The position numbers and the translations under genes were made by a program. A stretch of DNA of 52,090 bases from Patescibacteria group bacterium. Lineage in GTDB: Bacteria > Patescibacteriota > Patescibacteriia > Veblenbacterales > UBA10138. Below, one piece after another: positions 1 to 41,310 of this stretch. The stretch spans positions 1 through 52,090 of the forward strand of contig JBAZQK010000001.1 in NCBI GenBank assembly GCA_041645215.1, in the 5' to 3' direction. The notes under the pieces are model-generated. The model ran no database searches and had not been told where the DNA came from. It saw nothing but the letters and a program-made list of their open reading frames with translations. How positions within the stretch are numbered: the stretch's first letter is position 1; every line of letters starts with the position of its first letter.

Positions 1-195
1 GATCAGCCTGTTATCCCCGGAGTAACTTTTATCCGTTGAGCTTCGACCATCCTATATTGGATCGTCGGATCACTAACTTCTGCTTTCGCAACTGCTCGGG
101 TTGTCGCCCTTGCAGTAAAGCTGGCTTATGGGTTTGCCCTACCACTCCCGTTTCCATCGGGAGCTAGCCAACCTTTGTAAACGCCTCCGTTACAT

Positions 196-226
<31 letters not shown>

Positions 227-483
227 TGCCAGATACTGTCCCTTAGCCGGATAACGGCTTAAGGTTAGAATACTAAAAACATCAGGGTGGTATCTCACTT
301 GCTGGCTCTGTCCTAACCGGAGTCAGAACTTCAAAGCCTCCCACCTATACTGAGCAAACGGGCTTAATATTCAATACCAAGCTGTAGTAAAGCTTCACGG
401 GGTCTTTTCGTCTAGCCGTGGGTAACCCGCATCTTCACGGGTCTTGCAATTTCACCGAGTCCCTCGTTGAGACAGTCGTCAAC

Positions 484-534
<51 letters not shown>

Positions 535-609
535 GAAATATTACTAACTCTATCAAGTTAGCGGCGATCTTGTCGCCCTGCATGTCGCCATGCAGTCTGA
601 ACTCTATCT

Positions 610-1176
610 TCACTCCCGCCGAAACGGAGTGGTTGGCGTTTGGTTTCTGAGGATTCTAATTAAATTATTTTTAGATTTTTTATGATTCATTTGCTCCGAT
701 AATTTAAGTATCTTAATTAATCCTTTTCTCTCTAAATGCTTATTTTGACTCATCATTCTTACACACTGAGCAAATAACCTAAAATCATTATTCTTACTGG
801 TTTGTAAGTGGTGTTTCTCAAAGAAAGGGATAATCACACGCAGAAGATCTGCTCTTTTTCTAACAGCATACCGGTATAAATGTTCTTTATGATTATCATG
901 CCTTTGATTTAGGTATAAATTACCAACTCCAAAAAAGTTTCTAACTTTTTTCAAAGAGGATAAACTCTTCATACCTTGCGTGACGGCAAATTCATGCCAT
1001 GCTTGCACACCCATTCTATAGCCACGTCTTATTCGTAAAGACTCTTCTCGATCTGGTTGTTTTATAAAACCAATCGAGAAACAGCCCTCACCATCTACAA
1101 ATCCAACTATCCAACCTAATTTAATTAGTCTTTCCTGCTGATTGTCTGCACTAGTAGCATTATTACTTGTCGACAT
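610..1176 (-). CDS. Single-motif LAGLIDADG homing endonuclease (intron-encoded)
   Basis: Motif WIVGFVDGEGCF, 188 aa, inside the intron; its N- and C-terminal codons overlap the ribozyme Q and R elements. Confidence 0.95.
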   Translation of the reverse strand: MSTSNNATSADNQQERLIKLGWIVGFVDGEGCFSIGFIKQPDREESLRIRRGYRMGVQAWHEFAVTQGMKSLSSLKKVRNFFGVGNLYLNQRHDNHKEHLYRYAVRKRADLLRVIIPFFEKHHLQTSKNNDFRLFAQCVRMMSQNKHLERKGLIKILKLSEQMNHKKSKNNLIRILRNQTPTTPFRRE

Positions 1177-1182
1177 AATTTA

Positions 1183-1191
1183 ATTATATCA
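1183..1191 (-). promoter_or_regulatory. Extended -10 (TGnTATAAT) 6 nt before the homing endonuclease ATG; likely leaderless internal promoter
   Basis: Minus strand reads TTGATATAAT-TAAATT-ATG. Confidence 0.5.
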
Positions 1192-1410
1192 ACCTGTAGC
1201 TCTAGATTCAACAGAGTTTCCAGCATATAGCCAACTATTTTAAGACCATAGCACTATTGCGCTATGAGGCAGCTATTCCTATTTACTGCTAACCATTTAC
1301 CTGTTTATAACCGTCCCAGTCCTTCTGAAATCCTATAATACACCAGAATTCCAGAACCTTAGGACGGTTATAGTTACCGCCGGCGTTCATCAGCGCTTCA
1401 GTTCAAGGCT

Positions 1411-1527
1411 ACGCGCGCACAGCGCGCAACAAACAACAACTAACTAGCAACTAACAACACGGCTGGTTGTAAGTTGCTAGCTATAAGCGGCGTAAGCCGC
1501 GTGTTGCTAGCTGCGTGCTGCGCACGC
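1411..1527 (-). repeat. 23S hairpin expansion at the tip of helix 68 (~1870)
   Basis: About 115 nt with no counterpart in the canonical alignment; imperfect inverted ends; AAC/GTT-rich tandem interior. Confidence 0.8.
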
Positions 1528-1642
1528 TCACCTCTTGCCTTAACGTTCTGACACTGGCCAGGCATCAGCCCCTATACATCGCCTTACGGCTTAGCAGGGA
1601 CCTGTGTTTTTGGTAAACAGTCGGTTGACGTCTTTTACTGCG

Positions 1643-1788
1643 CCCCCCACTAATTTTGTCCCAATCCTATGAACGGCGCTGTGCCCTAAATGGGGCAGGG
1701 CTACTCGCCCTTACGCCGCGAATATCTAACGAACTAAGGATCGTTATCAACCATTAATTCGTTGATTAGTTACAAAATTAGTGGGGGG
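1643..1788 (-). repeat. 23S expansion of helix 63 (~1730)
   Basis: Perfect 17-bp stem CCCCCCACTAATTTTGT/ACAAAATTAGTGGGGGG enclosing 112 nt. Confidence 0.8.
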
Positions 1789-2317
1789 AGGCCTTATCCC
1801 GAAGTTACGGCCGTTGTATTGCCGAGTTCCTAAACGAGGGTTCTCTCGTTCACCTGAGGCTACTCGCCTCACCCACCTGTGTCGGTTTGCGGTACGGATG
1901 CCAATAAGTTGGCCCTAGAGGTTTTTCTAGGCTCTGATGCTAGTTTTATCGAGTCGGTGTTGCCACTTTCTCTGCGCCCGCTCGGTCTGCTTATGTCTGA
2001 CGGATTTACCATTCAAACACAGCCCTCGCCGGCACGCCCATAACCAAATGGCGCAAAACCTTAATCAAAGCGTCTCCCCATTGGAACTTAATGGCAGGGC
2101 AGGAATATTAACCTGCTGCTCCATCGTCTACGCCTTTCGGCCTCGACTTAGGTCCGCCTCACCCTGGGACGATTTGCGTTGCCCAGGAAACCTTGGGTTT
2201 ACGGTGGACTAGGTTTTCACTAGTCTTTTTGCTACTTATACCAACATTCTCACTCCTCTGTACTCCAGAGCGGGTCACCCCTACTCCTTCAGCGCAACAG
2301 AGGACGCTCCTCTACCA

Positions 2318-2421
2318 CCCCGCACTAATTCTAATCTCAACTATTTAAAATTTTACCAACATTCCCCTATAAAACTTACGGCTTATTGTAAAATTGTGTT
2401 GAGAACAAAATTAGTGCGGGG
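2318..2421 (-). repeat. 23S insertion at helix 45 (~1175), a classical IVS site
   Basis: Perfect 13-bp stem CCCCGCACTAATT/AATTAGTGCGGGG. Confidence 0.8.
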
Positions 2422-2504
2422 TCCACAAATTCGGTATTCAGCTTGAGCCCCGATACATTTTCGGTACCAAGTCGCTGGACCAGTGAGCTGTTACGCTATC
2501 TTTA

Positions 2505-2535
<31 letters not shown>

Positions 2536-2931
2536 TTGTTTGAGCGACGAGACCGCCTTTTACACTTAGCTGAAATTTAGGGACCTTATTTGGTGATCAT
2601 GGGCTGTTTCCCTTTTGACCAGTGAAGCTTAGCCCTCACGGTCTGACTCCATTCCTTTTACTATCTGACATTCGGAGTTTGGTTGGATTGTCTAGGCTTA
2701 CGCCATGACAACCCATTCAGTGCTCTACCATCAGATAGAAACAGAACAGGCTAGCCCTAAAGCTATTTCGAGGAGAACCAGCTATTTCCGAGTTCGATTG
2801 GAATTTCTCCCCTAACCACAGCTCATCCCCGCGTTTTGCACAGCGCGTGGGTTCGGTCCTCCACGTGGTTTTACCCACGCTTCAACCTGGCCATGGTTAG
2901 CTCACCCGGTTTCGGGTCTAGTGATAGCAGC

Positions 2932-3090
2932 GTTTGAGTAAGAAAAGCATTGCGCGCACAGCGCGCAACTTACAACACGCGACTACACCGCTTCTAACAC
3001 ACAACACTCAACTTATAACTTGTGTTGCTAGTTGTTGGTTGGTCGTTGTCTGTTGTCTGCTGCGTGCTGTACACGCCTCACTTTTCAAAC
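2932..3090 (-). repeat. 23S hairpin expansion near position ~650
   Basis: About 160 extra nt between GGGTCTAGTGATAGCAGC and GGCGGTTAAGCCTCG; stem GTTTGA..GAAAAG/CTTTTCAAAC. Confidence 0.8.
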
Positions 3091-3200
3091 TCAGTTCGGC
3101 GGTTAAGCCTCGCTTTCACTTTGACTTCGTCCCTTAGGACTTAATCCGCTACTACCAGCTAACTCGTTGGTTCATTCTTCAATAGGCACGCCATCACGCA

Positions 3201-3313
3201 CCACTCTAACGTTAGTTCGCCTATAACCCGGTCACTACACCAGCCGCCAAAGATTGTGTCTTTAGTTTCAACTGATTCGTCCGCGGCCATAAGCAAAACC
3301 GACGTTAGAGTGG
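3201..3313 (-). repeat. 23S insertion at helix 25 (~545), a classical IVS site
   Basis: Perfect 12-bp stem CCACTCTAACGT/ACGTTAGAGTGG. Confidence 0.8.
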
Positions 3314-3371
3314 TCAGCGCTCTGACTCCTTGTAAGCAAATGGTTTCAGATACTATTTCATCCCCCTCACC

Positions 3372-3418
<47 letters not shown>

Positions 3419-3640
3419 TGGAATGTATTTAGCCTTAACGCATAGTCGCGCCAGATTCCCACAGGATTTCACGAGTCCCGTGGTACTCAAGAATAATAAT
3501 ATAAAAGTCCAGAATTCCTTTCGCTTACAGGGCTGTCACCTTCTTTGGCTGACCATTCCAGGTCATTCGACTAGGAAAATCCTGATTTATAAACTTCCCT
3601 TAAGGACCACTCATCCTTAAGACATTACCATCTTTCAACC

Positions 3641-3729
3641 CTGCACTCAGCATTGGCTGAATGGGCCTTAAAACTATACGCCGCACCTATCAAAAGACAT
3701 GTACAGAATATAATTTAAGCTAAGTACAG
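3641..3729 (-). other. 23S expansion in domain I (~275)
   Basis: Stem CTGCACT/AGTACAG enclosing ~75 nt in a normally short variable helix. Confidence 0.55.
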
Positions 3730-3771
3730 TTTGGGCTGTTCCCGGTTCGCTCGCCACTACTACGGGAATTT

Positions 3772-3829
3772 TTGGTTTAATAACTACCATCCACCAAAGC
3801 TTTAGCGTGTCTGGTAGTAACTAAACCAA
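3772..3829 (-). other. 23S hairpin expansion near position ~220
   Basis: Stems TTGGTTTA/TAAACCAA and ACTACC/GGTAGT between GGGAATT and CGGTGTTTTCTTTTCC. Confidence 0.65.
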
Positions 3830-4143
3830 TTCGGTGTTTTCTTTTCCTCTGGGTACTTAGATGTTTCAGTTCCCCAGGTTACCTTCATAACCCTATGTAT
3901 TCAGATTATGATGTTACGATCTTCCATCGTAACGGGTTGCCCCATTCGGACATCTCCGGATCAAAGGTTGCTTGCCACCTCCCCGAAGCTTTTCGCAGGC
4001 TGCTACGTCCTTCATCGTCATTCCATGCCAAGGCATCCACCATTTGCACTTGTTGCGATTTAACCACAAGAATGAATACTTAATATTCATCTTTTACTAA
4101 TAATTGTTCGTATAACTTTGCTTGATTTATATTTACCTATTCA

Positions 4144-6545: not shown

Positions 6546-6905
6546 ATGAAAACAATACTAGTAATTTATGAAGACAGTCTAACCAGTAAGGTAATTGAAA
6601 GAACCTTACAAAAAAACAATTATGAAATCGAGAAAGTGCAAATGTCTGACTTAAGTCTCGACCAACATTCTAATCCAGATCTCATAATAATCGAGTTACC
6701 AAAAATAATCGACATGGGGATAAAACTGGTAAAGATGATAAAAGAGACCAAATCTTCAATTAAAATACTAATAACTTCAGCTCACAACCAGTCTGACATA
6801 GACAAGGCAAAACAGGAACTAGGCCTAAATATAGAAATCATCCAGGCTCCTTGGTCAAAAAATGACTTTCTGTCGCTAGTCAAAAAAATGATTAAAAAAA
6901 AATAA
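6546..6905 (+). CDS. Stand-alone atypical receiver (CheY-like) domain protein
   Basis: Pattern ILVIYED...PDLIIIE...ILITSA...APW; the phosphoacceptor Asp is Glu and the conserved Lys is Ala. Confidence 0.65.
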   Translation: MKTILVIYEDSLTSKVIERTLQKNNYEIEKVQMSDLSLDQHSNPDLIIIELPKIIDMGIKLVKMIKETKSSIKILITSAHNQSDIDKAKQELGLNIEIIQAPWSKNDFLSLVKKMIKKK

Positions 6906-6968
6906 TAAGTAAATTAAAGATTTCTCAAAACCCCGCTTCTTTTACAAAGACGGGGTTAATTTTATATT

Positions 6969-7237
6969 TGGTGCCGGGGAGAGGACTCAAACCCAGAAGT
7001 AGCCCCGCTAAGCAGGACACTACTGGGCAAGCCTCCGCGTGATTACTTGACCCCGTACAAGTGGTGGGCGAGGTGGGACTCGAACCCACAATCCTTACGG
7101 AATACGGTCCTAAGCCGTACGCGTATACCAATTCCGCCACTCGCCCACCATCTATACGGGGCTGTTTATACCAACCCCGAACCATGTTGGGTTCGGGGTC
7201 CGGCACCCGATGTGGTACCGGGTTTCACCACTCCGGC
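6969..7237 (-). pseudogene. Split, degenerate tRNA-Leu remnant enclosing the intact tRNA-Leu(UAG)
   Basis: 5' piece GCCGGAGTGGTGAAA (7223-7237), then TTGGTATAAAC (7164-7174); 3' piece GGGTTTGAGTCCTCTCCCCGGCACCA (6969-6994). Confidence 0.65.
7062..7146 (-). tRNA. tRNA-Leu(UAG)
   Basis: GGGCGAG/CTCGCCC acceptor, TACGG-CT-TAG-GA-CCGTA anticodon arm, long variable arm, GGTTCGAGTCC, encoded CCA. Confidence 0.97.
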
Positions 7238-7361
7238 AAAATTACTACGGGGTAAATATACCAACTTGCCCCGTACTTCCGCCTGGGGCGGATAGTGCGG
7301 GGTTCCCTGCCCCGCTGAGCGGTGCTCCACCCATATTAATAATAACCTATTTATCTCCTAT

Positions 7362-7390
7362 TTAGTACCGCAAAAAATGCCAGTTGTCAA
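7362..7390 (-). promoter_or_regulatory. Promoter for the tRNA-Leu locus
   Basis: TTGACA-17 nt-TACTAA on the minus strand. Confidence 0.6.
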
Positions 7391-7441
7391 TTTAGACCGA
7401 CTTATAGTAAAATAAATGTATTCATAATTAAACGTAAACCT

Positions 7442-10387
7442 ATGGGGGGTAGGAAAACGTCGCGAGTTATTGTTATCACGCTTTTTTGTAGTGTGATTTT
7501 TTTATTACCAAGCGTCAGCCAGTCCGCACCTGAGCATTTGGTTATTAGTGAAGTGCAAACTACCGGCGGTGAAGGCCATACCACTAATGATTTTGTAGAA
7601 CTATTCAACCCGACTTCCACGCCGCTTAACTTAAAGGGTTATCGCTTGGTAAAACGTACAGCCGCGGGCGTAAGTGATACTACTCTTAAATCTTGGACCG
7701 ACGATGTTATTGTTCCGGCTTACGGTTTTTATCTTTGGGCTAATTCTGATTATACTTCCATATCAACCGCGCCCGATGCCACTACCAGCGGTAGCTTAGC
7801 CGATAACAACGGCGTTGCCTTGCGCCAGGGCGCGGCAGACACCGGCACAATTATAGACAGTGTGGCTTGGGGAAACAGCACCAACACTTTTATTGAAGGC
7901 GTAGCGTGGACAACTAATCCCGGACCAAATCAATCATTAGAACGCCGGAAACCGCTGGCTGGCGCCAGACAAGATACTAATAATAATACCGCTGATTTTA
8001 CTATCCAAACCAGTCCAACAGCGCAAAACAGCGCTACCGCGCCAGAAACTCCTATCCCAATCAACAACAACTCAACTGGTACCTACCCGATGTCGCCAAC
8101 CAACAACCCCCAAAGCGGCGAAGTGGTTATTAATGAAATTGTTAGCGACCCGGGAAGCGGCGGTGAAGAGTGGCTGGAACTTTATAATCGCTCAACCCGT
8201 GTAATTGACTTGTCTAAGTTTACCCTTGAGGATGGCAGTCATACTATAAACCAGTTAAACGGCAACCTGGGCACAGATGGCAACAGCCGTTTTACTGTTC
8301 TAAAATCACCCAAGGGTAATTTAAACAACGACGGCGACATTGTAATTTTAAAATTCGCTGACACTATAATTGACCAGGTAACTTACGGCAATTGGGACGA
8401 CGGCAATATGGCTAACAACGCGCCAGTGGCGCGCGCTCCTTGGGGTATTGGCCGCTTACCTGATGGCCAAGACAATAACAATGACCAAACAGATTGGATA
8501 ATTACTAATCCGACCATAGGTGCAGCTAATCAGGCCAGCTCGCCAGCCTCAACAAATTCGGACAATAAGTCCGCTGGTTTAACTTTTTCTGAAATATATC
8601 CTAATCCGCCCTTAAGCGACGAGACCAATGAATTCATTGAATTGTTTAACAACAGCGACCAAATTATCAATCTAAATGGTTGGATTATTAAAGATAAAAT
8701 AACCTCTTATCTAATTAACAATAACGACTGGCCATCAACCATCATTGAGTCCAAAAAGTTTTTTCTTTTACCACGGCCTAAAACCGGAATTGCCTTGGAT
8801 AATGAGGGCACGGAACAGCTAACACTTGCTTCGCCCGACAATAAAATCATTTTAAAACTTAACTACACTGGTCCGGCTAAAGAGGGTACAAGCTACGCCA
8901 AAAACGAACAAGGTGGGTGGCAATGGACTACTCAGTCCACACCAGGACAACTCAACAAAATAATATTGATTGATGAACCGCCTCATTTAGGATTTTTTAT
9001 ACCTAAAAAAGGCGTGGCAGGTGAATTAATAATTCTAGACGCTTCCGACACGGTTGACCCGGAAGGAAGACCAGTCAGCATTCTTTGGAGTTTGGGCGAT
9101 GGCGCTTTCAGCACCACCATCACCCCCAGCCATATCTATAATAAAGCCGGGCGCTATACTGTAAAATTAAAAGCCTCTGACCATGCTGGCAATGAGTCCA
9201 GCGACAGCCAAATCATAACTATTGAAAATTCCAACACCGTGAGCGGTAAGGTCGCCGGCGTGACAAGTGGACCAATTGAACTTACCGAAATTATGCCTAA
9301 TCCTCAAGGCAGTGATAATAACGAATGGCTGGAGCTATACAATCCTAATCTAACCGCTACTAATACGGCGGGATGGAAATTAATTATCAATGGCCGCGGT
9401 TACAACTTGCCCGAGCACGACATAGCGGCTGAATCATACTATTTAATTACCAAAAAAGACGGTAAATTCACTTTAATTAATGGCAAAACTAAACTGATCT
9501 GGCAATCGCCCACCGGCCAAAATAACCAGGAAATCAATTATAATTCCGCCCCCGAAGGCCAAAGTTTGATTATGGAGGAATATGGCAATGTCTGGACAAC
9601 CACACCTACGCCAGGCGGTGAAAATATCTTAACCCGGGCAAGTTCGACCAACTCTGATAGCTATCAAACCCTGCCGCTGGCTGAAATTAAATCTTTAGAC
9701 AGCGGCAGTAAAGTCAGCACCGAAGGTGTAGTGGCTCTGGAACCAGATGTGCTCGCCAAAAATATTTTCTGGCTTGGCGGCGAGGCTGGCATACAAATTA
9801 ACTTGAGCGGCGGCGGTTGGCCTAATCTTAAAGTCGGCGACCTGGTGAAAATTCAAGCTACATTGTCGCGAACGGCTACCTACGGCACTCGGTTGCTCTT
9901 ACGCCAACCGGAACAGCTCAACATTATCGGCCAAGTCCAATTACCTGAACCAAGTCTGATTAATCTTAGTGACATCGGTGACGATAACGAAGGCCAACTT
10001 ATAACCACCACCGGCAAGGTGAGTAAATCATTGGCTCGCAGTTTTACTCTTACAAATACTGACAGTAACCTGACAGTTAGTTTAAAAAACTCAACTTTAA
10101 AATGGCCTAAAGTAAAAAATAACGACGAGCTAAGCGTAACCGGATTTGTTGCTGTGACTAAAGACGGTATAAGGTTACTCGCCCGGTCGCCGCAGGACAT
10201 AATAACCAAATTCAGCGCGCCCGCCGCCCCAGCCGTACTAGACTTGAGCCAACCGGCCAAATCAAACAACCTGCCGGGTTATATATTAGTGGGCGGGGTT
10301 ATACTAGCCGGACTTGGTATTTACCTTTGGCAAAAATTCAACTGGCCGCACCTTGTTGATTTGATAAAAAACCGTTTTAAAAAATGA
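7442..10387 (+). CDS. Secreted, membrane-anchored protein with ~4 lamin-tail domains, a PKD domain and C-terminal OB-fold-like regions
   Basis: Repeated VISEV/INEI/FSEIYPNP/LTEIMPNP...EWLELYN motifs; PKD-like LDASDTVDPEG..WSLGDG..HIY.KAGRYTVKL; N-terminal hydrophobic signal and C-terminal TM helix. Confidence 0.8.
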   Translation: MGGRKTSRVIVITLFCSVIFLLPSVSQSAPEHLVISEVQTTGGEGHTTNDFVELFNPTSTPLNLKGYRLVKRTAAGVSDTTLKSWTDDVIVPAYGFYLWANSDYTSISTAPDATTSGSLADNNGVALRQGAADTGTIIDSVAWGNSTNTFIEGVAWTTNPGPNQSLERRKPLAGARQDTNNNTADFTIQTSPTAQNSATAPETPIPINNNSTGTYPMSPTNNPQSGEVVINEIVSDPGSGGEEWLELYNRSTRVIDLSKFTLEDGSHTINQLNGNLGTDGNSRFTVLKSPKGNLNNDGDIVILKFADTIIDQVTYGNWDDGNMANNAPVARAPWGIGRLPDGQDNNNDQTDWIITNPTIGAANQASSPASTNSDNKSAGLTFSEIYPNPPLSDETNEFIELFNNSDQIINLNGWIIKDKITSYLINNNDWPSTIIESKKFFLLPRPKTGIALDNEGTEQLTLASPDNKIILKLNYTGPAKEGTSYAKNEQGGWQWTTQSTPGQLNKIILIDEPPHLGFFIPKKGVAGELIILDASDTVDPEGRPVSILWSLGDGAFSTTITPSHIYNKAGRYTVKLKASDHAGNESSDSQIITIENSNTVSGKVAGVTSGPIELTEIMPNPQGSDNNEWLELYNPNLTATNTAGWKLIINGRGYNLPEHDIAAESYYLITKKDGKFTLINGKTKLIWQSPTGQNNQEINYNSAPEGQSLIMEEYGNVWTTTPTPGGENILTRASSTNSDSYQTLPLAEIKSLDSGSKVSTEGVVALEPDVLAKNIFWLGGEAGIQINLSGGGWPNLKVGDLVKIQATLSRTATYGTRLLLRQPEQLNIIGQVQLPEPSLINLSDIGDDNEGQLITTTGKVSKSLARSFTLTNTDSNLTVSLKNSTLKWPKVKNNDELSVTGFVAVTKDGIRLLARSPQDIITKFSAPAAPAVLDLSQPAKSNNLPGYILVGGVILAGLGIYLWQKFNWPHLVDLIKNRFKK

Positions 10388-10538: not shown

Positions 10539-10976
10539 ATGAATCACGAAAATATAAAGGGTCCTGAGGATGAAATTCAAAAAACTCCTGAGGGTAATAT
10601 TGAATTTCCTGAGGAAGTAAAGCAATGCATTGCGCAGGAGAAATCAAAATTAGTGGAAGAGATAAATAGGTGTGATAGTGTCAAAAAAGAGTATGACCGT
10701 TTTAAAACCGGAGGAAAGGGGTATCGCGAAGGTGGTCGGGTTAATGCTGGTCTTACTAGTTTTATGTTTGGGATACCGATTTTGTCTGCAGCATTAATGA
10801 CAGGAGGTAAGAATCTTAGTATTGAAGCGGGTGTTGCCGCGGTTCTAACGCCCCACATCATTGAAGGAGTGAGAGAGCTTGCTCATTATGGAAAATATAA
10901 GTATGCAGAACATAAACGCAAAAAAACGGTAAAAACTCTTTTGGGAGGTACTAACGCCGAGTCTGTGGTAGCATAA
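10539..10976 (+). CDS. Hypothetical protein with two putative TM segments
   Basis: 145-aa ORF; upstream TTGCAA-17-TATACT promoter. Confidence 0.6.
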   Translation: MNHENIKGPEDEIQKTPEGNIEFPEEVKQCIAQEKSKLVEEINRCDSVKKEYDRFKTGGKGYREGGRVNAGLTSFMFGIPILSAALMTGGKNLSIEAGVAAVLTPHIIEGVRELAHYGKYKYAEHKRKKTVKTLLGGTNAESVVA

Positions 10977-11006
10977 GAGGGCAATTAAAATTAATAACAA
11001 GATACT

Positions 11007-11294
11007 ATGGATATAGAAAAAAAACTTAAAGAAATCGGCGTTTCAGCCAACTGCATTGCCACATATGAATCAGTAATAGCGCTAAGTGGCGAAAAAGATG
11101 CTAAGTCGGCAGCGGCGATTGCATTTATGATTAGCGATCTAATAGATATCGCCACAGAACAAAAAGGGATAGAATTTGCAAAAAATTATATTGAATTACA
11201 AGCCAAAAGATTGGATGCTTTCTTTTTGGCTGACCCTAAGGCTCACAAAGAAGCACTTGAAGGCCTAGCTGATCTTTTGGGGGTTGAAAAATAA
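11007..11294 (+). CDS. Hypothetical helical protein
   Basis: 95-aa ORF directly downstream of the previous gene; no family recognised. Confidence 0.6.
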   Translation: MDIEKKLKEIGVSANCIATYESVIALSGEKDAKSAAAIAFMISDLIDIATEQKGIEFAKNYIELQAKRLDAFFLADPKAHKEALEGLADLLGVEK

Positions 11295-12759: not shown

Positions 12760-12842
12760 ATATCTAAATATCTAGCCAAACACAAATACCTATTAATTAT
12801 ACTGTGGTGTCGCGCTCAGCGCGACTATGACCACGCTAAGCG

Positions 12843-12929
12843 TGGTGGGCTAGGTGGGACTCGAACCCACATCCCGCAAACGGGACAGCATTTTAAGTGC
12901 TGCGCGTATACCAGTTCCGCCACTAGCCC
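12843..12929 (-). tRNA. tRNA-Leu(UAA)
   Basis: GGGCTAG/CTAGCCC acceptor, CAGCA-CT-TAA-AA-TGCTG, variable arm CCCG-TTTG-CGGG, encoded CCA. Confidence 0.97.
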
Positions 12930-13402
12930 TTATGTAAAATATTCCTCCCCCGATGAGTCGGCTGCAAGCTATGACAATTGGGACAAAGAATGCGTAAATT
13001 ATTCAAACGATTATCATGCCTGTCACCGTTAATATGGTCAAGCTCCAAAGGAAGATAACCATCAGTATTCCTTTTGGCCCAACCACACAACTCACAACAT
13101 TGTTTCTTTATACTGGCCGCAAACAACCGACGTTTTAATTTGTAGCTTTGAAAATTACTATTTTTGATAAGTATTTCTTCAAGTGGTATTCGCGGCTTAC
13201 CAATACCAGTCATGCCACGATTCCAACCTTTCCCTCTAAAATGTTTTGTTTTTAAATTATATTCGTGTATATATTGCTTGATTTGTTCATAATTACCACC
13301 TGCTGGACGCAACCCCAAATTAAGAAGTACTTGACGATAACTAAACGAATCTTTAACAGCTTTAGTTAATTGGTCCATTGTCCATTTTCTACGTCTAGCC
13401 AT
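12923..13402 (-). CDS. Free-standing HNH endonuclease
   Basis: CELCG...LELDHINGDRHDNRLNNLRILCPNCH; start moved to MARRRKW; stop codon lies inside the tRNA acceptor stem. Confidence 0.92.
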   Translation of the reverse strand: MARRRKWTMDQLTKAVKDSFSYRQVLLNLGLRPAGGNYEQIKQYIHEYNLKTKHFRGKGWNRGMTGIGKPRIPLEEILIKNSNFQSYKLKRRLFAASIKKQCCELCGWAKRNTDGYLPLELDHINGDRHDNRLNNLRILCPNCHSLQPTHRGRNILHKG

Positions 13403-13646
13403 AAATACATTATGGCATAAGGTAAACGCAAAGGCAATACAATACTTATATGTGTACCAGCTTACTCCGCACTGCCCCTCCGTGAGACTAATGTGGGGTT
13501 TCACACCCTAATTCTTTATTTTTAAAAATCACTAGCCCTTAATTTAGGCAAAAATAGCATAGCATTTGGGTTTTTTTATGGCAAGAAACCACCATAACAA
13601 TAAATAAAAACCCGGTCCTCCATTACCGGGTTAATAGTTTCATAAA

Positions 13647-16400: not shown

Positions 16401-16655
16401 TCAAACCAGTAAAGTTTTTTCTAATCGCTTTTTAATAAAATTTCGCCCCCAGCCCGTTTTTAAAAATCTTTCCCTGTTTTGAGCATCTTCTTTAGCTAAA
16501 CACGCCTCATAATAAATCAGCCTAAATGGTCGACTGTTTTGTGTAGAAAAAACTTTACCGGTCTGATGTTTTACAAACCTTTTTCTTAGGTTATTAGTAA
16601 AACCAGTATATAACTCACCATCTTGCAGACTTTTTAAAATATAAACGTAAAACAT
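16401..16655 (-). CDS. Small GIY-YIG nuclease (UPF0213-like)
   Basis: FYVYIL.S......YTGFT.NL.KR...H...T....PF.LIYYE......A..RE.FLK. Confidence 0.92.
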   Translation of the reverse strand: MFYVYILKSLQDGELYTGFTNNLRKRFVKHQTGKVFSTQNSRPFRLIYYEACLAKEDAQNRERFLKTGWGRNFIKKRLEKTLLV

Positions 16656-38169: not shown

Positions 38170-38235
38170 TGAACCAGAGCATAGCACGATTCAGGCCTAC
38201 CATGAACCGTGTTGCTTTAGAGCAACTCTGGTTCA
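38170..38235. repeat. Hairpin element abutting the CCA end of tRNA-Ala(GGC)
   Basis: TGAACCAGAG/CTCTGGTTCA termini; near-duplicate of the tRNA end TGGTGG(A)CC on the far side (38162-38169). Confidence 0.7.
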
Positions 38236-39233: not shown

Positions 39234-39292
39234 CCCGCCCTGTTAGACATTTTTGGACCTAGGGAGAATCGAACTCCCGTCTCCACAACTTG

Positions 39293-39401
39293 CCCCGTTA
39301 GAAATTCGCTTTTGGACTCACCGGGAATCGAACCCGGAACTCGGCAATGCGAATGCCGCGTAATACCGTTTTACTATGAGCCCACATCATTTCTAACGGG
39401 G
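39293..39401. mobile_element. MITE-like element with 12-bp TIRs carrying a tRNA
   Basis: CCCCGTTAGAAA (39293-39304) / TTTCTAACGGGG (39390-39401). Confidence 0.8.
39313..39383 (-). tRNA. tRNA-Ala(CGC)
   Basis: GGGCTCA/TGAGTCC with G3.U70, CGGCA-TT-CGC-AT-TGCCG, CCGGG-TTCGATT-CCCGG; CCA not encoded. Confidence 0.93.
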
Positions 39402-39472
39402 TGAACGAATGTGGTGTCATACCACTAGACCATAGGCCCTAAATAAACATTATAGCTGATTATAAGCCTCTT

Positions 39473-41103: not shown

Positions 41104-41310
41104 CAAATTTGTTCGTAAGCGATTATGCCCTGTAGTTTCCGCCCACCTGCCCGCCATCGGCCTCTGGCAATCGATAATTATTATTTAGTGCTGTAGCTTT
41201 CTATTTAATAGCATCGTTTACCCCGTTAGAAGTAACCCCAATGGCTGTCGGGATACTCCACCACCAGTGGAGACTTCTAACGGGGTTTACTTTGTACAGG
41301 CTTAGGCAGG
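41104..41310 (+). repeat. Dispersed ~138-bp repeat, copy 1 (contains a MITE insertion)
   Basis: Near-identical to 46158-46295 apart from a 65-bp insert plus 4-bp duplication. Confidence 0.92.
41221..41285. mobile_element. MITE with CCCCGTTAGAAG/CTTCTAACGGGG TIRs and TTTA target duplication
   Basis: Filled site here; empty site at ~46271. Confidence 0.88.

Follow-up and report, generated by a model that had tools for sequence, protein, structure and literature searches.

The window analysed here is a stretch of 52,090 nucleotides (positions 1 to 52,090, forward strand) of contig JBAZQK010000001.1 from the Patescibacteria assembly GCA_041645215.1, a 1.17-Mb genome in 26 contigs and 100% complete that we call G000. 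At positions ~6969-7315, on the minus strand, the window carries a nest of transfer RNA (tRNA) genes in which one intact tRNA-Leu is enclosed by the parts of older ones. We refer to the innermost tRNA as layer 1 (L1), to the older shell around it as layer 2 (L2) and to the outermost shell as layer 3 (L3). Coordinates of the nest are window positions and, since all of its elements lie on the minus strand, they are listed from high to low. The locus was compared with that of a sister genome from the same genus (G001), with other genomes (G004, G005, G008, G010, G011, G016 and G018) and with a metagenome contig (L017).

At the centre of the nest ARAGORN calls an intact tRNA-Leu(tag) at 7062-7146, minus strand, which the Rfam tRNA model scores at 60.1 bits (E 1.6e-12). 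ARAGORN finds 47 tRNA genes in the genome, and no other of them is a Leu(UAG) gene; together, intact genes cover all five Leu anticodons and all 20 amino acids. The gene is flanked by a 15-nt leader, CCCCGTATAGATGGT (7161-7147), and an 11-nt trailer, CTTGTACGGGG (7061-7051), and both flanks lengthen the acceptor stem so as to form a 22-nt inverted repeat that we call the clamp; the terminal inverted repeats of the whole cassette read CCCCGTATAGATGGT / ACCACTTGTACGGGG. Of the 22 positions of the clamp, read as RNA, 19 form Watson-Crick pairs and two form G.U pairs, and the remaining one is an A.C mismatch. The cassette as a whole, 111 nt long, has a fold of -60.4 kcal/mol in which the cloverleaf forms the tip. 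The L1 tRNA is identical to that of G001 at 84/85 aligned positions, and there is no credible open reading frame (ORF) within the nest. An earlier note on this DNA, made from the letters alone, had described an intact tRNA-Leu(UAG) between inverted repeats in a 111-bp element, and ARAGORN, Rfam and the inverted repeat all bear this out; every element it named lies where it was placed, on the minus strand. The whole nest reaches farther upstream than the earlier note had it, and its features are as follows.

7360-7390, minus strand: candidate promoter-like site, TTGACA (7390-7385), 17 nt, then TACTAA (7367-7362), read from the sequence; a 36-nt block is 31/36 identical in G001.
7303-7315, minus strand: decayed L3 5' end (GC-GGGGCAGG-GAA), 62% identical with indels in the alignment to G001, where the intact form is GCCGGGGTGGTGGAA.
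7265-7302, minus strand: hairpin module H1 (CCCCGCACTATCCGCC..GGCGGAAGTACGGGG + CAAG) in the L3 D-loop; 37/38 identical in G001.
7253-7264, minus strand: L3 D-loop piece (TTGGTATATTTA); 12/12 identical in G001, with the junction also found in G008, G011, G016, L017 and G004.
7238-7252, minus strand: leader arm of the L2 cassette (CCCCGTAGTAATTTT); its partner in G001 is the trailer AAATTTACTTCGGGG after the L2 3' end.
7223-7237, minus strand: L2 5' acceptor strand, positions 8-9, D-stem 5' strand and D-loop start (GCCGGAG TG GTG AAA); 14/15 identical in G001.
7175-7222, minus strand: hairpins H2 (7221-7200) and H3 (7198-7175) in the L2 D-loop, from an inverted-repeat search and folds.
7162-7174, minus strand: L2 D-loop piece (TTGGTATAAACAG); 12/13 identical in G001.
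7051-7161, minus strand: the 111-bp L1 cassette, with leader 7161-7147, tRNA-Leu(UAG) 7146-7062 and trailer 7061-7051, from ARAGORN, Rfam, the inverted repeat and the fold.
7032-7050, minus strand: spacer TCAAGTAAT, then CAC/CGC (L2 D-stem 3' strand), G26 and the T-stem 5' strand GGAGG, read by homology with G008 (CACGCG then later arms) and with L3 of G001; 55% identical in G001.
6992-7031, minus strand: hairpin H4 (CTTGCCCAGTAG..CTACTTCTGGG) between L2 T-stem position 53 and T-loop position 54, from sequence and folds.
6969-6991, minus strand: T-loop, T-stem 3' strand, acceptor 3' strand and ACCA, derived from L3 (a 21/23 match to the L3 3' end of G001, and not to the L2 3' end).
6924-6957, minus strand: terminator-like hairpin AACCCCGTC..GCGGGGTT, then the T-rich tail TTTTGAG, from the fold; a hairpin lies at the same position in G001.

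The pieces immediately outside the cassette, GCCGGAGTGGTGAAA (7237-7223), TTGGTATAAACAG (7174-7162), GGAGG (7036-7032) and TTTGAGTCCTCTCCCCGGCACCA (6991-6969), had been read in the earlier note as one broken tRNA-Leu, a reading that hung on the rebuilt sequence doing better than shuffled controls. Indeed, when the three inserts are deleted in silico ARAGORN calls an 85-nt tRNA, and it calls one in 0/2000 piecewise shuffles and in 173/2979 (5.8%) controls with shifted boundaries, in which the deletion edges were moved by at most 12 nt and at least one edge by at least 3 nt. The extra hairpins fared unevenly: the D-loop pair at 7175-7222 is confirmed, whereas the AGTAG..CTACT hairpin (H4), which had been put before the T-arm, is inside it, because it stands between the T-stem 5' strand and the T-loop. 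In G001 the outer stem of H4 is kept and the inner hairpin is swapped for a different, still paired sequence.

The orthologous locus in G001 carries the same nest, 87% identical, with three complete layers. Its L3 runs in the order GCCGGGG TG GTGGAA, H1 + CAAG, TTGGTATATTTA, the L2 cassette, G CAC G CATGG CTTAGGA CCATG, the variable arm, and finally GGAGG TTCGAGT CCTCT CCCCGGC A; minus its inserts this is a perfect tRNA-Leu(tag) for ARAGORN, with all 24 cloverleaf pairs kept. L2 of G001 has a perfect 7-bp acceptor stem (GCCGAAG/CTTCGGC) and a CCCCG/CGGGG clamp of its own (CCCCGTAGTAATTT / AAATTTACTTCGGGG). Alignment of the window to G001 reveals an 84-nt deletion between the T-loops of L2 and L3, which share GGTTCGAGTC. 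The deletion took the L2 3' end, the L2 trailer and the part of L3 from the D-stem 3' strand through the T-stem 5' strand, and the L2 leader arm is orphaned in the window because its trailer was deleted. As read from this alignment, then, the outer "tRNA" of the window is a chimera of the L2 5' half and the L3 3' end, and the joining of two layers is why A6 and C67 do not match. A Leu-type tRNA does remain around the cassette, as had been claimed, but it derives from two older genes and not from one. An apparent compensatory change between G000 and G001 in the outer acceptor stem was not kept as evidence, since it partly reflects the chimeric 3' end. No recent conversion tract was detected near the nest: along the flanking LTD gene identity does not clearly rise or fall, and the other flank is non-homologous in G001.

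The position of the L1 cassette within L2 was read from its relatives. Upstream of the enclosed unit in G008, G011 and L017, and of the L2 cassette within L3 of G001, the shell ends in ..GGTATA + 4-5 nt, and the same holds in G016, which has the same cassette leader and acceptor, and in G004, which has a related clamp. Downstream of the units stands (N)CAAG.., followed by CAC/CGC + G, that is, the D-stem 3' strand and position 26, and then by the later arms of the shell; this junction is readable except in G016, whose contig ends first. The 3' side of the L2 D-loop is the most likely site of the window cassette, rather than the anticodon loop, with CACGC at 7041-7037 as the D-stem 3' strand and G26; placement in the anticodon arm is the less well-supported reading. 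With a D-loop placement, the GCCCC/GGGGT "anticodon stem" used by ARAGORN would be the cassette's own arm tips, and L2 would lack anticodon and variable arms. The same placement would make TCAAGTAATCACGC a spacer followed by the D-stem 3' strand, so that the TCAA.. stretch would not be the variable-arm-like sequence it had been taken for. The nest is alike in kind to a tRNA-Ala nest in which the earlier note had seen the same architecture, but the Ala nest is in the anticodon loop and the Leu cassette most likely in the D-loop.

The same bounded unit recurs in other genera. The leader CCCCGTATAGATGGT and trailer CTTGTACGGGG, with the same acceptor stem, enclose a Leu(UAA) gene in G008 and G011; the same leader and acceptor surround Leu(CAG) in G016, where the contig stops before the trailer, and the same trailer and acceptor, with a variant leader, surround Leu(CAG) in L017. 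Each of these cassettes is within a Leu shell. In G004 a related clamp surrounds Leu(CAA), and cargo and shell share the acceptor GCCGCTG. There is one cassette copy per genome, and the same arms are found at Leu(UAG), Leu(UAA) and Leu(CAG) loci, including those of four other genera. The frame of arm, acceptor and T-arm is nearly constant across genera, and the anticodon and variable arms differ by cargo, G000 and G001 carrying Leu(UAG), G008 and G011 Leu(UAA), and G016 and L017 Leu(CAG). The variable arm of the G008 cargo matches that of its shell at 14/15 positions; with the shared acceptor in G004, this suggests that the centre of the cargo may be copied from the resident gene. A CCCGAT(N4)ATCGGG hairpin stands in place of the anticodon arm in the Leu shells of G008:C19 and G004:C4.

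Other genomes have the locus without a nest. G010 carries a plain tRNA-Leu(UAG), with no clamp or fragments, between an LTD/PKD surface-protein gene and genes for a DUF1653 protein and an M17 peptidase, and these neighbours match those in the window, where the locus adjoins genes for a response-regulator receiver, DUF1653, the LTD/PKD surface protein and the M17 peptidase. A plain tRNA-Leu(UAG) likewise adjoins the DUF1653 and M17 genes in G005, and in G018 it has the LTD gene on one side and the DUF1653 gene on the other. That three genera have the gene in plain form at the syntenic site indicates that the nest is derived and that its age is at least that of the G000/G001 split.

Nor is the nest alone in its genome, where at least seven tRNA genes (Ala UGC, Val UAC, Ala CGC, Ser CGA, Arg UCU, Ser UGA and Leu UAG) stand among fragments of a cognate tRNA, clamped by arms with CCCCG/CGGGG ends; around the tRNA-Ser(CGA) of G000 the clamp has a related arm core, CCCCGTACAAG. 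The sister genomes differ at the Ala(CGC) nest (window 39254-39439; G001:C2 ~10600-11050). Here the acceptor of the intact G001 gene is of the type seen in the outer shell of G000 (GGGCCTA), its clamp is a different repeat of 20 nt, and upstream of the gene lies a 5' fragment resembling the G000 inner gene (GGGCCCATAGTAAAGCGGTATTAC). Inner and outer allele types are thus swapped between the sisters, which is direct evidence of turnover. The genome has 110 CCCCG-ended arm pairs with a stem of at least 10 bp, which form a superfamily like miniature inverted-repeat transposable elements (MITEs), and 17/110 lie within 400 nt of a tRNA gene, a zone that makes up 3.5% of the genome. Elements with CCCCG ends are mobile DNA in G000 and include a MITE family with 4-bp target duplications, described below.

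A promoter-like site and a terminator-like hairpin bracket the nest, and both are matched in G001. A consensus promoter/terminator scanner called neither, the promoter because its -10 hexamer is weak and the terminator because its T run is only 4 T. For the predicted precursor of 428 nt the computed fold has an energy of -205.4 kcal/mol (z = -7.2) and keeps both the clamp and the inner cloverleaf; the genome encodes RNase III at C7:83535-83930.

The reading of the nest toward which we lean is that it arose by serial "disrupt-and-replace" insertion of clamped tRNA cassettes and is transcribed as one precursor. Directly observed are the three layers, the deletion that fused two of them, other genera in which the locus is un-nested, a clamp-bounded unit that recurs and the lack of a splicing route (see below). 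The layers would have been built as one clamped cassette after another was inserted, as DNA, into a cognate tRNA gene: L2, itself a clamped cassette, would have entered the D-loop of a resident L3 tRNA-Leu(UAG), and the L1 cassette the D-loop region of L2, while small GC-rich hairpin modules were probably added at loop-coding positions (D-loop and T-loop) of both shells. The shells appear unable to decode, L2 having no anticodon arm and L3 being split; in G000, L3 has also undergone decay of its 5' end and fusion with L2. The host would then be unable to lose the cassette, because it holds the only functional copy. Having no promoter of its own, the cassette would be transcribed as part of a precursor of ~430 nt that extends from the outermost promoter-like site to the terminator-like hairpin, and the inner tRNA would be freed by ordinary processing, probably by RNase III acting on the 22-bp clamp and then by RNase P and 3' trimming. 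As part of this precursor the shell helices may be kept under some selection. Candidates for the movers of the cassettes are small GIY-YIG and HNH nucleases encoded beside many other tRNA genes of the genome; since there is no nuclease gene at the nest, any nuclease involved would act in trans.

Several observations weigh against this account of successive insertions. There is no target-site duplication around the cassette, whose flanks are ACAG / TCAA, and likewise none at the relatives, in contrast to the sibling MITEs. Searches of the genome for a transposase acting on CCCCG ends, of the IS1380 type or the Y1/IS200 type, were negative; no long element with CCCCG ends was found, and of the 63 left ends all but two, which are close to contig ends, have a partner no more than 300 bp away; and the genes next to the locus include no nuclease or recombinase. 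In the genome collection just 4 species representatives have a cassette with the exact leader, and a trailer pattern search found no cassette in viral contigs, so that carriage by phage was set aside. L1, moreover, is closer than L3 to the plain syntenic orthologues, with which it has the acceptor GGGCGAG and the variable arm in common, and this is awkward for a simple history in which the outermost gene is the ancestral resident.

Nor do the shells look as if they evolved neutrally. Between G000 and G001 the neighbouring LTD gene, whose four-fold sites serve as a neutral yardstick, is 68% identical at those sites (n = 167), and the relic pieces reach 91-100%: 97% for H1, 100% for the L3 D-loop piece, 93% for the L2 leader, 93% for the L2 5' piece, 92% for the L2 D-loop piece and 91% for the 3' end, with 55% for the variable region and 62% for the L3 5' relic. 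The H2 and H3 stems differ by six substitutions, all pairing-preserving in the tRNA sense, and in the H1 family (five copies, 14 pairs) 98.6% of cells are paired and four pairs are changed on both sides. The L2 5' stem strands have only two differences, at acceptor position 5 and at T-stem position 52 (G in G000, A in G001), and both match the current 3' partner in each genome, for which we roughly estimate a chance of 0.04. Such conserved and compensated helices complicate a simple history of insertions and leave room for a role of the shells at the RNA level. One alternative is that the shells, whatever their origin, are now functional RNA, the old acceptor/T-arm minihelix and the hairpin-capped loops being kept as a scaffold that guides folding, processing or protection of the precursor; in the extreme case RNase III would cut the clamps and leave working, helix-clamped, multi-piece outer tRNAs. 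To the conservation just described it can add that sense folds are more stable than antisense folds for 7/9 helices, that L3 of G001 retains its 24 cloverleaf pairs and that RNase III is encoded. Yet L2 has no anticodon arm, the L3 5' end has decayed in G000, an 84-nt deletion was tolerated there, and the variable region and the hairpin interiors diverge freely between the two genomes (55% and lower). No outer tRNA is needed, since intact genes serve all 20 amino acids and the five Leu anticodons; the conservation, in a comparison based on one sister genome, may in part come from gene conversion among Leu paralogues or from recurrent replacement by copies of mobile hairpins. We regard a scaffold as possible, though distinctly less probable than serial insertion. 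Unlikely, in our estimation, is a hitherto unrecognised two-sided system of the candidate phyla radiation, in which trans-acting mini GIY-YIG/HNH nucleases would insert ~110-bp tRNA cassettes and small GC hairpins, in a structure-guided manner, at loop-coding positions of structured-RNA genes, and in which selection would keep the acceptor/T minihelix and capped loops of the shells as a scaffold for processing or protecting the multi-layer precursor (in the extreme, as helix-clamped split tRNAs).

The fragments might also be scars of ordinary events at a tRNA hot spot (integrase islands, nuclease cassettes, duplications and deletions) with no mobile clamped cassette involved. tRNA genes are classic integration sites, modules of a nuclease plus a tRNA are present at other tRNA loci of this genome, and a deletion between repeated T-loops did happen in the window. 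Against this, the shell fragments in G001 are exactly complementary halves at a single breakpoint and not duplicated att-type ends, every unit so enclosed has an inverted repeat of its own at its borders, this bounded unit turns up again in further genera and at further Leu loci, and the locus has no recombinase or nuclease gene; we consider this explanation improbable. Less credible still, to the point of being very improbable, is that the inserts are true bacterial tRNA introns, excised and religated as RNA by an archaeal-type, ribozyme or new mechanism, so that the outer gene yields a tRNA-Leu. Inserts at D-loop, T-loop and near-anticodon positions do resemble non-canonical archaeal introns, and ARAGORN accepts the sequence after their removal; the junctions expected on splicing would be GTGAAA joined to TTGGTATA and GGAGG joined to TTTGAGT. 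However, ARAGORN accepts the joined pieces only with the cassette arm tips as anticodon stem and with non-Leu anticodons (tgt/agt/att/ata), no 7-nt loop with a Leu anticodon is regenerated, and the outer gene is chimeric, with a mismatch and a deletion. In intron mode ARAGORN returned mostly chimeras of adjacent tRNAs. Archaeal-type splicing was ruled out: there is no bulge-helix-bulge (BHB) motif, the clamp being a continuous 22-bp helix with one A.C mismatch and no 3-nt bulges; there is no EndA (PF01974) match in the 100%-complete genome, with archaeal controls positive; and there is no RtcB (PF01139) match in the genome, with 10/14 control genomes matched. A group I intron or other known RNA family was ruled out as well, since Rfam at E up to 1 finds only tRNA in 6850-7450; 85 nt of the 111-nt insert are tRNA, and a group I core was not recognised.

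Several known systems share features with the nest. MITEs, repetitive extragenic palindromic sequences and bacterial interspersed mosaic elements (REP/BIME), the palindromic elements of Rickettsia and Correia elements are short elements without coding sequence that have inverted repeats at their ends and can form long hairpins; they are often nested in each other and are found in RNA genes as well as between genes. The cassette is bounded in the same way, and a sibling family with CCCCG ends is abundant in G000, but its cargo is a complete essential tRNA gene, its target a gene for the same amino acid, its insertion without duplication and its copy number one per genome and not dozens. Intervening sequences of 23S and 16S ribosomal RNA (rRNA), as in Salmonella, Leptospira and others, are excised by RNase III without religation. 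The nest likewise presents a helix-closed insert at a loop of a structured-RNA gene in a genome that encodes RNase III, the long helix being a likely site for this enzyme, and no ligase would be needed; the difference is that the host rRNA works as fragments, whereas here the shell cannot decode and the insert is the useful product. Free-standing homing endonuclease genes of the phage T4 SegB type lie beside or within tRNA genes. Cassettes of this kind are selfish units at a tRNA gene that bring a replacement tRNA sequence, and the small GIY-YIG and HNH ORFs of G000 are mostly beside tRNA genes, but there is no nuclease ORF in or beside the nest.

Integrative elements (prophages, integrative and conjugative elements, genomic islands, and archaeal elements of the pNOB8/SSV type) also target tRNA genes, bring their own tRNA sequence and leave displaced fragments, which repeated events turn into layers. 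They are kilobase-sized, however, encode a recombinase, restore only the part of the gene beyond the crossover and leave duplicated 3' (or 5') ends, whereas the cassette is 111 bp long, free of protein genes and bounded by inverted repeats, carries a whole tRNA, sits in the D-loop region and leaves the old gene in complementary halves. The shell fragments being complementary at a single breakpoint, there is no direct repeat of a tRNA segment of the attL/attR type. Archaea have tRNA genes with non-canonical, multiple and transposable introns and split or permuted tRNAs (Fujishima 2010, cited in PMC10714607). The archaeal introns are similar in that several inserts occupy D-loop, anticodon and T-loop positions of one gene and behave as mobile units; the nest differs in being bacterial, in having no BHB, EndA or RtcB, in carrying a second tRNA within the insert and in leaving the outer gene unrestored. 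A full-text literature search found no description of bacterial tRNA-in-tRNA nests, and the closest printed concept is the disruption of archaeal tRNA genes driven by mobile elements, as in the Caldiarchaeum tRNA-Thr model (PMC3293823).

If serial insertion is correct, the smallest bacterial genomes harbour selfish genes cut down to one tRNA and a clamp, and such a cassette would persist because it ruins the gene already in place and makes itself essential, which would amount to a minimal ratchet of gene replacement at the core of translation. The nest would give bacteria an equivalent of the disrupted archaeal tRNA genes, one that has no splicing machinery, and a three-layer locus compared between sister species would offer dated layers and a recombination event. 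The conserved shell helices raise the question of how a tRNA matures from a heavily structured 430-nt precursor with look-alike sequences in it. For annotation, tRNA finders report the inner gene alone, and the surrounding 300-400 bp are left as "intergenic".

The genome has 19 GIY-YIG matches, ~17 of them small ORFs of roughly 70-170 aa (for example window 16455-16655); at least nine of the small ORFs are no more than a few hundred bases away from a tRNA gene, and two have in-frame stops. An HNH-type ORF at 12923-13504 (minus strand) runs into the 5' end of the tRNA-Leu(UAA) at 12843-12929.

One family of MITEs, beginning CCCCGTTAGA.., has 47 copies with 4-bp target duplications such as TGAA. 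All five copies of the form CCCCGTTAGA..TCTAACGGGG whose flanks are printed sit exactly in ATGAA at a gene start, and several further copies are likewise flanked by ATGAA/TGAA; the last G of the element together with the duplicated TGAA rebuilds a GTG-AA start codon for the downstream ORF. A related nested copy is in the window at 41221-41285. The five copies at gene starts are:

C5:8219-8317: MITE copy at a gene start, flanks printed.
C8:7850-7983: MITE copy at a gene start, flanks printed.
C8:18534-18613: MITE copy at a gene start, flanks printed.
C8:26216-26277: MITE copy at a gene start, flanks printed.
C22:6515-6609: MITE copy at a gene start, flanks printed.

The CCCGAT(N4)ATCGGG hairpin noted above in two Leu shells occurs once more in the G004 shell, where the T arm is expected, and the family is also found in G000 at C21:36447-36474; it looks as if arms of dead tRNA genes have been overwritten by this common hairpin family.

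The 23S rRNA gene at window 1-4051 contains a CCCCG/CGGGG-ended hairpin of 104 nt with a 15-bp stem at 2318-2421, and the Rfam LSU match takes up 3646 nt for only 2487 model positions. A separate 5.8S-like match at 3895-4051 hints at a further insert that sets the 23S 5' end apart.

Downstream of other tRNA genes two trailer modules recur. One, TGAACCAGAGTTGCTCTAAAGCAACACGGTTCATGGTAGGCCTGA, follows four tRNAs, and the other, CGCTTAGCGTGG..GCGCTGAGCGCGACACC, follows three, its start pairing with the encoded ACCA. Together they are found at window ~38191-38235 (after tRNA-Ala GGC) and ~12800-12842 (after tRNA-Leu UAA) and at C13, C20:69638, C20:146398, C8:41718 and C20:68322.

Finally, ARAGORN finds no transfer-messenger RNA (tmRNA) in the genome, and Rfam RF00023 matches at C6:61774-62162 with 88 bits; with the tmRNA located there, the idea that the outer shell of the nest is a tmRNA was ruled out. 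The RF00023 search also gave a tRNA-like match at C1:341-411 that ARAGORN does not call.

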